Below, in pieces: positions 9,001-12,000 of a stretch of DNA of 23,053 nt (position 1 is the first letter of the stretch; each line of letters opens with the position of its first letter). The DNA is from a virus (Duplodnaviria; Heunggongvirae; Uroviricota; Caudoviricetes): positions 1-23,053 of the IMG/VR virus record IMGVR_UViG_2537562020_000011. The stretch is one strand, 5' to 3'. Made by a program: the position numbers.

Positions 9001-12000
9001 TGCTGACAAACCTGAACCACGTAGCGATGAGTACGCTTCTTGGTGAGCGTGTAATGGACCGCATGGTCATGAACGGTGGTCGCTGGGTGAATTTTAACTG
9101 GGAGAGCTGGCGTTCGAATGTCAGGCACCTGAGGGTTGTGAAGTAATTTTGTCCGGAGGAAATTTTAATGGAAACCGTTTTTGACGCACTGAAAGCAATG
9201 GGAAAAGCCACATCCATAGAACTTGCTGCGCGACTTGATATCAGTCGTGAAGAAGTGCTGAACGAACTATGGGAACTGAAAAAGGCTGGTTTCGTTGATA
9301 AAAGCGCGTACACCTGGCGTGTGGCTGATAACAACGTTCAGCAGGAACAGCCAGCGCAGGCAGAACTGCCGGAAGAAACCTCCACGGCGACAGTAGCGAA
9401 AATCTCAGAGTGCGATTTAACCGCGACGATTGAACAACACGGACCACAAACGGCTGATGAGCTGGCTACATTGTTTGGTACCACATCACGCAAAGTGGCT
9501 TCAACGCTGGCAATGGCAATCAGCAAAGGACGCCTGATTCGTGCAAATCAGGACGGTAAATTTCGTTACTGCATGCCGGGCGATAATTTACCAGCAGAGC
9601 CGAAAGCAGCATCGGTAGCGGAAACTGATGGTAAAGCCTTTCCTCAGCCTGCATGTGTTGCGTTACCAGTACAGGAGGCTGCAACACAGGAAGATATTAA
9701 AACAGAAACTGTGGCGGACATTGTGCAGTCGCTGCCATCGTTTACTGAAACGCGAGCGGATGACCTGGTTTTACCATCGCTGCATATGGCAAACCGCGAA
9801 CTGCGTCGGGCGAAAAGTCATGCCCAGAAGTGGGAACGAGTCTGCGCCGCGCTGCGGGAGCTGAACAAGCACCGGGATATTGTTCGACATATTTTCGATT
9901 CCTCCAGTCATATTGTGTCGGAAAAGTGATTCCTGGGGAGGGCTTATGGCAAAAGTTTTTACACAAGAAGAGCGAGAAAAAATTAAAGGGCAGGTTGTTG
10001 AACTCGTACGCCAGAGTGGGCGTGAGACGTTACGGCAACTGGAAGTCAAGACAGGTGCGACAAGATATCTGATGAGCGTTCTCGCAAGAGAGCTGGTTGC
10101 CAGCGGCGATGTATACAACTCTGGTTACGGGTTATTCCCGTCTGAACAGGCGCGTAAGGACTGGCAAAATGCCCGTAAAAAACTATCAAGGGCAAAGGTG
10201 AAGAAACCGGTTGTGGTTGATCCTGACCTTATCTGGTCATTACCCGACGGAGAAATACGTCGTTACGACAGGCGTCTGAACATAATCTGTCGCGAGTGCC
10301 GGAAGAGTGAGGTTATGCAGCGAGTGCTGGCGTTTTATCAGGGTAATTTTCAGGAGGTGATGGCGTGAGGGTGAGGGTTTATATCGCTGGTCCGATGACC
10401 GGGTATAAAAATTTCAACCGTGAGGCGTTCCACAAGGCGGAAGAGGAACTGAAACGGGAAGGGCATACAGTCTTGAACCCGGCAGTACTTCCGGACGGGC
10501 TGACACAGCCACACTACATGGATATCTGCATGGCGATGATTCGTTGCGTGGATGCGATTTACATGCTGCAAGGCTGGCAGCGGTCAGCAGGCGCTAAAGC
10601 GGAACTGGCTCTGGCGGAGAAGCTAGGGCATGTGGTTGTTTTTCAGAGGGGGCGATATGCCGATTCTCTGGTTTCAGGAGGTGTGGGAAAAAGAAATGTG
10701 GGAAGGTCTTGTGATTGTGGCCGAAACAGTTCTTTTATTATGGTCTGTGATTGCGTGTATTTTTATGATTTATTGTGAATGATGTGAATCTCGCGGTGGC
10801 CACTGAATTGCAACCATTACCCCCTGTGATGTAATTGTGGGGTAATGGTTGCGCAGGCATAGCGACAGGACTGGATGAGAAAAATATGACGAAATTTACC
10901 AGAGAGCAATTGATTGCTCATGCTAATGAAAGTGTGAAATCCATGAAATTTGCTGCGCGACAGACCGTGTTTAAGACTTCAAGAGTTGCCATTGAAATGG
11001 ATCTTGCGCTTGCCCGTATTGCGCTTGCCTCACTTGAAGCAATGCCAGTTGCATGGTCCTGTGCTCACAATATGGTTTTGTTCAATGCTGAATCTGTTGC
11101 GGCATACGCAAAACACTCAGCCATTGCGCCAAAACCCCTGTACGCTGCGCAACCGGCATCACTTTCACATGAGGAAGAGTTGACAATGCTGGTTAAACAA
11201 TTGGTAAGTCAGTTGAAAAAAGCGAAACCAGATTGCAAATTACCGGATATGGCGATGGGGTATCTGGAGCGGAATGGGCTGATAAGCGCGGAGGATGTTT
11301 TACGATGACCTGGCCGGAGGCATTCACAACGACAGGAATTGCAATGGCGGCAGCACTTGTTGTGTATTCGATTTGCCGCTGGGGATAAAAACGGTTTGCA
11401 GTGAAAGGGGAGTTAAGTAGAATTGCTGCGGGTGCTTGAGGCTATCTGCCTCAGGCATGAACACCAAAAGGCAGATAGAGAAAAGCCCCAGTTAACATTA
11501 CGCGTCCTGCAAGACGCTTAACATTAATCTGAGGCTCAATCTATGTCTCACAAATGTAGGTTAGCCTCTTACGTGCCGAAAGGCAAGGAGAAGCAGGCTA
11601 TGAAGCAGCAAAAGGCGATGTTAATCGCCCTTATCGTCATCTGTTTAACCGTCATAGTGACGGCACTGGTAACGAGGAAAGACCTCTGCGAGGTACGAAT
11701 CCGAACCGGCCAGACGGAGGTCGCTGTCTTCACAGCTTACGAACCTGAGGAGTAAGAGACCAGGCGAGGGAGAAATCCCTCGCCACCTCTGATGTGTCAG
11801 GCATCCTCAACGCACCCGCACTTAACCCGCTTCGGCGGGTTTTTCGTCGCATAATGAGGTTGTAATTTTAGCTACCATTAGACTATCCTAAGGATCTCAA
11901 ACAGATCTATTTTGCATCAAATTTGGTGCATGGCTTTGCCAATAATCGGAAAACAAAAGGACTCATTAGTATGAGCTGCCCACTCAAAAAACACACGCGG

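Follow-up and report, generated by a model that had tools for sequence, protein, structure and literature searches.

What kind of toxin locus does a Hok-family gene in a lambdoid prophage belong to: a type II toxin-antitoxin (TA) operon of the relBE-hokD type, in which hok stands third and lacks antisense control of its own, or a self-contained type I module with its own antisense RNA? The question is raised by the IMG/VR virus record IMGVR_UViG_2537562020_000011 (Duplodnaviria; Heunggongvirae; Uroviricota; Caudoviricetes), positions 1 to 23,053; this whole stretch of 23,053 nucleotides (nt) is called the window below. We conclude, with a probability of roughly 0.88, that window positions 11395-11846 hold a complete stand-alone hok/mok/sok type I TA module in the nin region of a Qin-like lambdoid Escherichia coli prophage. 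The anatomy of the module and its conserved, covarying RNA structure come from this sequence; its dynamics are taken over from the hok/sok system of plasmid R1 and from hokW-sokW of phage 933W. An earlier sequence-only reading of the window had proposed such a unit. The features it described are all present, at coordinates that are exact or a few bases off, and its interpretation is supported: every proposed element was found, together with the Sok gene and its promoter.

The toxin gene and its folding transcript

The toxin gene hok occupies 11600-11755 on the plus strand and encodes 51 amino acids (aa), MKQQKAMLIALIVICLTVIVTALVTRKDLCEVRIRTGQTEVAVFTAYEPEE. As had been claimed from the sequence, the product belongs to the Hok/Gef family: it matches Pfam HOK_GEF (PF01848) with E=1.2e-23 and 82.9 bits against a cut-off of 22, while the NCBIfam Hok-family models give sub-cut-off matches (48.5 bits vs 73). 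The in-frame mok-like leader, proposed to start at 11543, is likewise present as an open reading frame (ORF) of 70 aa at 11543-11755 (+) that shares the hok stop. Residues 25-66 of this mok frame are covered by the Pfam match, and the equivalent ORF carries the mokW annotation in 933W. Each start codon has its own Shine-Dalgarno (SD) sequence. That of mok is GAGG at 11531-11534 (+), 8 nt 5′ of the ATG at 11543, and that of hok is AAGGAG at 11585-11590 (+), 9 nt 5′ of the ATG at 11600.

Related loci were gathered from one genome per species, 53 in all, and the 37 with intact leaders were aligned with MAFFT (alignment A2; Escherichia, Shigella, Kluyvera, Pseudocitrobacter, Citrobacter, Pantoea and Photorhabdus). 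The mok SD is invariant in this alignment and the hok SD is conserved. The Tyr47 codon of hok contains a TACG motif (11738-11741, +), and TACGAA is invariant in all 37 homologues. At the TACG of hokC, hokD and hokE, A-to-I editing by TadA has been reported, which changes Tyr to Cys (PMC5630033, PMC12214031).

The locus also shows a long-range pairing between the two ends of its transcript. The sequence-only reading had noted that 11425-11441 and 11805-11820 are almost perfectly complementary, and folding bears this out. In the minimum-energy fold of 11420-11850, positions 11427-11441 pair with 11805-11820 in 15 base pairs (bp) with one bulged C at 11811. The energy of this fold is -180.1 kcal/mol, against -130.9 ± 6.1 for shuffled sequences (z = -8.06; none of 100 shuffles as good), and the isolated 5′/3′ duplex reaches -27.9 kcal/mol. 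When folding starts at 11430, the pairing joins the translational activator (tac) at the mRNA 5′ end, 11430-11441 (+, GGGUGCUUGAGG), to the fold-back inhibitory element (fbi), 11805-11817 (+, CCUCAACGCACCC).

The pairing has been retained across the alignment. The core of the tac/fbi helix is kept in 37/37 homologues, with tac itself nearly invariant, and compensatory changes occur at two pairs: the U-A pair 11433/11814 becomes C-G in 11 of the 37 and the G-C pair 11441/11805 becomes A-U in 5. In register, 82.6% of the tac/fbi cells are paired; sliding the register lowers this share to 35-54%. The covariation score and the count of double-sided changes were reached by none of 500 shuffles. In all homologues but one degenerate Shigella copy, the 5′/3′ duplex has an energy of -19 to -34 kcal/mol. 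The Photorhabdus fbi, whose copies lack the bulged C, was placed one column off by MAFFT; read by eye, these copies form 12 continuous tac/fbi pairs. Alignment artefacts account for the 'not paired' entries in columns 42, 44 and 46 and for some of the outer-helix mismatches. Since the duplex is kept and covaries across homologues, the tac/fbi pairing is real and under selection.

Damaged chromosomal hok copies were also seen. In one (L016) the 3′ untranslated region is interrupted before fbi, a Shigella flexneri copy (L048) has indels in the leader and coding region, and a further copy (L006) has a rearranged 5′ leader.

The transcript that carries these elements has a recognisable beginning and end. 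The hok promoter lies at 11395-11423 (+), with a -35 box TTTGCA (11395-11400), a 17-nt spacer and a -10 box TAGAAT (11418-11423), and is the sole sigma-70-like site that a promoter scan found in 11200-12100. Transcription is likely to start near G11430, as predicted from the sequence. The Rfam family RF01794 matches 11430-11605 (+) with 121.6 bits against a gathering score of 59 (E=1.3e-27), and this match begins at the same base. The spacing from the -10 box to the start agrees with that of the R1-type plasmid locus (TATGAT, 6 nt, then GGCGCUUGAGG). The predicted full-length hok mRNA, 11430-11846 (+), is about 417 nt long, folds with -173.7 kcal/mol and aligns end to end with homologues. It would end, as had been proposed, in a strong intrinsic terminator, which RNA folds place at 11824-11846 (+) with a 7-bp stem, a UUCG loop and a U run. 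The hairpin AACCCGC-UUCG-GCGGGUU spans 11824-11841 and is followed by U-rich sequence; two of the terminator U's are probably taken into the stem. This terminator is kept in the E. coli, Shigella and K-12 copies. A second 3′ stem-loop, at 11744-11801 (+), would end the processed, truncated mRNA, as judged from RNA folds; its counterpart in R1 gives protection from 3′ exonucleases (PMC9841398).

The hok mRNA of R1 passes through three states: a nascent RNA with a metastable 5′ hairpin, a full-length RNA in which tac pairs with fbi and the ucb element covers the mok SD, and a 3′-trimmed RNA in which tac pairs with ucb and the mok SD with the downstream complementary box, dcb (PMC9841398). All three are recovered in silico as minimum-energy folds of 11430-11462, 11430-11846 and 11430-11803, respectively. 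The nascent fold pairs 11432-11442 with 11448-11458 at -19.6 kcal/mol, and 11448-11458 (+) is thus the tac partner in the metastable hairpin. In the full-length fold, besides tac and fbi, ucb 11484-11491 pairs with 11529-11536, and the mok SD is thereby sequestered. The ucb, an anti-Shine-Dalgarno box, occupies 11483-11491 (+, AAGCCCCAG) and has two alternative partners, the mok SD region (11529-11536) when the RNA is full-length and tac when it is truncated. In the truncated fold the partner of tac (11430-11437) is ucb 11483-11489, and that of GAGGCU (11531-11536) is the dcb, AGCCUC at 11563-11568 (+), a pairing formed solely in this state. The latter pairing extends the hairpin that holds the mok AUG and exposes its loop CUCACAA. 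This putative Sok target hairpin spans 11538-11562 (+), with the loop at 11547-11553 and the YUNR-type sequence CUCA inside it. Loops of the YUNR type have a U-turn role in the R1 system.

The antisense Sok gene

The comparison with 933W predicts a cis-encoded Sok gene opposite the mok start, with a promoter and a terminator hairpin of its own. In 933W the annotation gives mokW, hokW and a 71-nt sokW RNA on the opposite strand; transferred from this sokW misc_RNA by alignment, the predicted Sok RNA of the window is about 71 nt long and runs from 11551 to 11481 on the minus strand. It is predicted to fold at -31.5 kcal/mol (z = -5.86) into one long hairpin, flanked by a single-stranded 5′ tail of about 9-14 nt and a U run, and is antisense to both the SD and the start codon of mok. 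The sequence-only reading had expected a minus-strand Sok-like RNA around 11490-11600 but could not define its promoter. The strand and the general placement stand, whereas the extent is about 11481-11551, with the promoter separate at 11558-11586.

This promoter (11586-11558, -) consists of a -35 box TTGCCT (11586-11581), a 17-nt spacer and a -10 box TAACCT (11563-11558), with the start near 11551; it was located through sokW homology, and the terminating hairpin with its U run through homology and the fold. The promoter stretch is identical in the window and in 933W sokW, and TTGCGC-17-TATCCT stands in the corresponding position of the R1-type plasmid locus. In 933W the function of the -10 box has been examined directly: the sokW box TAACCT was replaced by means of primers YO-421/YO-422 in a 'pro-less' construct, which unmasked the toxicity of HokW, and sokW supplied in trans gave partial rescue (PMC8621323).

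The region of contact between Sok and its target is also where the locus varies most. Among eight close relatives, divergence peaks at 0.26-0.32 differences per site over 11535-11559, where the target loop, the mok start and the 5′ tail of Sok lie; much of the remaining leader and coding region shows 0-0.05.

Proposed mechanism and competing explanations

These elements may work together as follows. The hok mRNA would be made from its own promoter, and in the nascent RNA the 5′ tac would be kept in a metastable hairpin. Once the RNA is full-length, tac would pair with the 3′ fbi and ucb would cover the mok ribosome-binding site, so that neither translation nor Sok binding could occur. Slow 3′ trimming would then take off fbi, upon which tac would move to ucb and the mok SD to dcb, and the Sok target hairpin would form. 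From this truncated mRNA Mok could be translated, and Hok with it by coupling, unless Sok pairs with the mok start region and exposes the RNA to RNase III cleavage. The unstable Sok, made from the minus strand (about 11551 to 11481), would in this way repress the Mok-coupled translation of Hok. If Sok were lost, the 51-aa Hok would enter the inner membrane and kill or lyse the cell.

By analogy, the most likely role of the module would be earlier killing or lysis of the host and better phage release after SOS induction. This role is suggested because the 93%-identical hokW-sokW of Sp5 has it. That pair has been shown experimentally to be a type I TA system, dependent on RNase III and Hfq, which speeds lysis after induction (Takada et al. 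2021, PMC8621323). The sokW RNA is lost after mitomycin C in a RecA-dependent manner, HokW is seen about 1 h ahead of endolysin, and deletion halves phage release (PMC8621323). Prophage retention or the exclusion of other phages are alternative roles.

Could the locus instead be a relBE-hokD arrangement, with hok as the third gene of a type II operon? In favour of this, RefSeq uses the name hokD for the identical locus, the window Hok and K-12 HokD are the same protein, and the prophage is Qin-like, with DicF, dicB and ydfC. Yet homology to K-12 relBE-hokD is found only from 11586, the leader is present in full with tac, ucb, the mok start and sok, and the ORFs upstream of hok, which encode a DUF4406 protein and proteins without a family match, have no RelB or RelE match in Pfam or NCBIfam. 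The sequence thus rejects a relBE linkage, which we regard as extremely improbable, and agrees with the earlier view of the locus as stand-alone. There is next to no chance, too, that Sok is a plus-strand RNA, with the RF01794 match at 11430-11605 being the antitoxin gene itself. The family is labelled 'sok antitoxin' and does match the plus strand. In 933W, however, it matches + 2887-3061, yet the annotated sokW lies on the opposite strand at 2937-3007; the match stops on the hok AUG and so spans the hok leader, and it is the minus strand that carries the validated -10 box of sokW. Since RF01794 lies on the hok-sense strand in 933W, the plus-strand match in the window is the hok leader and not the antitoxin, and a plus-strand Sok was rejected. 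As an observation on the family itself, RF01794 'sok antitoxin' matches the hok leader strand in the window, at the above 2887-3061 of 933W (locus L001) and at 342-518 of locus L057, and strand calls made from it need care.

The main rival to a working module is an intact-looking but silent locus: a conserved selfish relic without a maintenance or lysis role, in which Sok always suppresses Hok or the mRNA is never activated. Several points weigh on that side. The activity of the module on the window DNA, that is, its transcripts, their processing and toxicity, is predicted from sequence. The Sok promoter is poor relative to the sigma-70 consensus (4/6 and 3/6), falling below the threshold of the consensus promoter scan, which did not list it, and the hok terminator likewise escaped a simple terminator scan. 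The comparison of duplex energies is also of limited help: cognate and non-cognate tac/fbi energies among the 37 homologues are weakly separated (-24.5 vs -23.0 kcal/mol), and the cognate pair equals or betters the median non-cognate one in just 20/37, a test made weakly discriminating by the near-invariance of tac. According to a preprint (bioRxiv 10.1101/2025.08.07.668861), the intact-looking hokA of E. coli C, hokB of K-12 and hokC of ECOR24 failed in post-segregational killing or rifampicin activation; an intact appearance is therefore no proof of activity. In K-12, only 6% of hokD transcripts carry the Tyr-to-Cys edit, and this cysteine position is thought to be important in Hok toxins (PMC12214031). 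Finally, the lysis-helper role is known from a 933W-type copy, which lies near attR, differs in four aa and has another Sok 5′ tail. Against a silent relic stand the regulatory elements, which are all intact and covarying, and the 93%-identical hokW-sokW, a working TA pair with an induction phenotype (PMC8621323). The same preprint includes HokD among homologues previously shown to be toxic when expressed, and conservation over thousands of genomes and phages is very high. On balance we consider the silent relic improbable, and prefer a complete module under Sok control.

Two further ideas about that complete module, which taken together we hold to be rather unlikely though less so than the silent relic, would extend its mechanism. 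The peak of variation at 11535-11559, combined with the many copies per genome, makes it possible that co-resident hok/sok copies form separate specificity classes that avoid cross-repression. The second idea starts from the position of hok within the pR early-right operon and in the same orientation: on induction, N-antiterminated read-through could run into the convergent Sok promoter and interfere with it. If true, such read-through would be a built-in, position-dependent switch that turns Hok on in lytic growth.

Neighbourhood, distribution and known relatives

The window represents a Qin-type lambdoid prophage of mosaic make-up, with DicF, dicB, ydfC, CI/Cro-like regulators and replication genes; searched as a whole, it is covered to no more than 78% by any one E. 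coli record, which fits a mosaic prophage. The placement in a nin-like region holds, because the locus is found between the replication genes and DUF968-RusA-Q. In order, the replication genes are followed by DUF1627, DUF977, DUF4406, an ORF of no assigned family, the hok locus, a Doc-family toxin pair, DUF968, RusA and Q.

Several neighbours deserve mention. A second TA pair (11971-12654, +) lies directly 3′ of the hok terminator. Its toxin, of the Doc/Fic death-on-curing type, is encoded at 12169-12654 (+; TIGR01550 E=1.5e-37, Pfam Fic 6.9e-12); the 59-aa ORF in front of it (11971-12150, +) matches no family and is presumably the Doc antitoxin. On the other side, a 27-aa hydrophobic ORF at 11305-11388 (+, MTWPEAFTTTGIAMAAALVVYSICRWG) shares bases of its ATG with the stop codon of the upstream ORF at 10886-11308 (ATGA). 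Its peptide is conserved in 933W (73%, with conservative changes) and in the E. coli/Shigella loci L005 and L010 (93%), it carries no annotation in 933W or RefSeq, and the homology between the window and 933W begins exactly there. The DUF4406 gene at 10365-10778 (+) matches its Pfam family over residues 4-93 (E=9.2e-38), and its C-terminal 40 residues show no evident relation to that domain; in a near-identical genome, RefSeq lists the counterpart as a pseudogene with the C-terminus missing. Further away, the DicF antisense small RNA at 4524-4575 (-; Rfam, 70.8 bits) adjoins a dicB homologue, and the two mark a Qin-like immunity and division-inhibition region. Two prophage tRNA genes on the plus strand, at 16695-16770 and 16868-16944, have the anticodons CAT (Met or Ile2-type) and TCT (Arg). 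They lie 3′ of a DNA methyltransferase homologue, an arrangement common to many lambdoid and Stx phages.

The hok locus is widespread. It occurs in 102 phage records and has a match in 4727 of 5426 complete E. coli genomes, 3906 of which match at least 80% of the 481-nt query, leader included; four enterotoxigenic E. coli genomes are 100% identical. The number of hok/sok copies per genome has a median of 2 and reaches 10 places. A recent survey, in which hok proved to be enriched in prophages, put the number of Hok homologues at 44,248 (bioRxiv 10.1101/2025.08.07.668861). Loci with 96-100% identity to that of E. coli (L018, L023) also occur on tiny contigs assigned to Acinetobacter idrijaensis (275 nt) and Xanthomonas pisi (431 nt), and a record named Actinobacillus phage vB_Apl-pPE4 (H1) has a locus with 98.3% identity. 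These occurrences in Acinetobacter, Xanthomonas and an Actinobacillus phage most likely reflect contamination or mislabelling.

The locus is real but ordinary, and it is already known: 933W carries annotated mokW, hokW and sokW, RefSeq has hokD in thousands of genomes, and experiments have already characterised a copy with 93% identity. RefSeq marks the toxin coding sequence alone, and the value for annotation is that Sok, mok and the regulatory elements are now precisely placed. What is added consists of coordinates for Sok and the regulatory boxes, the variation peak at 11535-11559, and a breakpoint in the K-12 copy described below.

Compared with hok/sok (parB) of plasmid R1 and IncF plasmids, the window locus shares the architecture and the folding logic. 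Corresponding parts in the R1-type locus are the 5′ end GG(C/GU)GCUUGAGGCU, the ucb (AGCCCC), the mok SD (GAGG), the position of the Sok promoter and the 3′ fbi, and RF01794 matches the window, 933W and the R1-type plasmid locus alike. In contrast, the R1 toxin has only about 43% identity to the window Hok, the bulged C (11811) in the tac/fbi stem is a feature of the window that differs from R1, and R1 hok/sok is plasmid-borne with a shown role in post-segregational killing.

Much closer is hokW-mokW-sokW of Stx2 phage 933W and Sakai prophage Sp5 (AF125520), with 93.3% DNA identity over 448 nt. The two loci are organised alike, with few or no differences in the hok promoter, tac, ucb, Sok promoter, Sok hairpin and fbi. 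In the coding alignment HokW and the window Hok are identical at 47/51 positions, the four differences being C-terminal. Differences are found in the 5′ tail of Sok, the mok start and the target loop (TCTCACAA in the window, CTGAACAC in 933W), the terminator region is replaced in 933W beyond 11822, and the 933W locus is near attR whereas that of the window is in the nin region. In 933W near attR, an sRNA-Xcc1 Rfam match (L001 447-535; 69.1 bits against a gathering score of 53) lies upstream of the hokW region. The lambdoid phages mEp460, HannyBb and Tritos have hok loci that are 96% identical and share the nin position between the replication genes and DUF968-RusA-Q. They are annotated as MokW or HokD, MokW being the label in mEp460, and the downstream neighbour is rem in mEp460 but the Doc toxin pair in the window. 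With 93.3% identity to 933W, up to 98% to other phages and a prophage context, the window locus belongs to the hokW-sokW subgroup.

The comparison with relBE-hokD (relF) of the K-12 Qin cryptic prophage returns to the opening question. The Hok protein is identical to that of the window, the coding sequences differ by one synonymous base, and DNA identity is 98.5% over 11586-11844, fbi and terminator included. K-12 hokD also lies in a similar prophage and neighbourhood, upstream of DUF968 (ydfU) and Q. However, K-12 has relBE in place of the promoter, tac, ucb, sok and mok start found in the window, with the breakpoint at 11585/11586, and its hokD is regarded as inactivated by rearrangement (PMC12214031). 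Since K-12 keeps 11586-11844 only, the window copy is the intact, unrearranged and relBE-free form: it represents the K-12 relBE-hokD locus as it was before relBE took over its leader.

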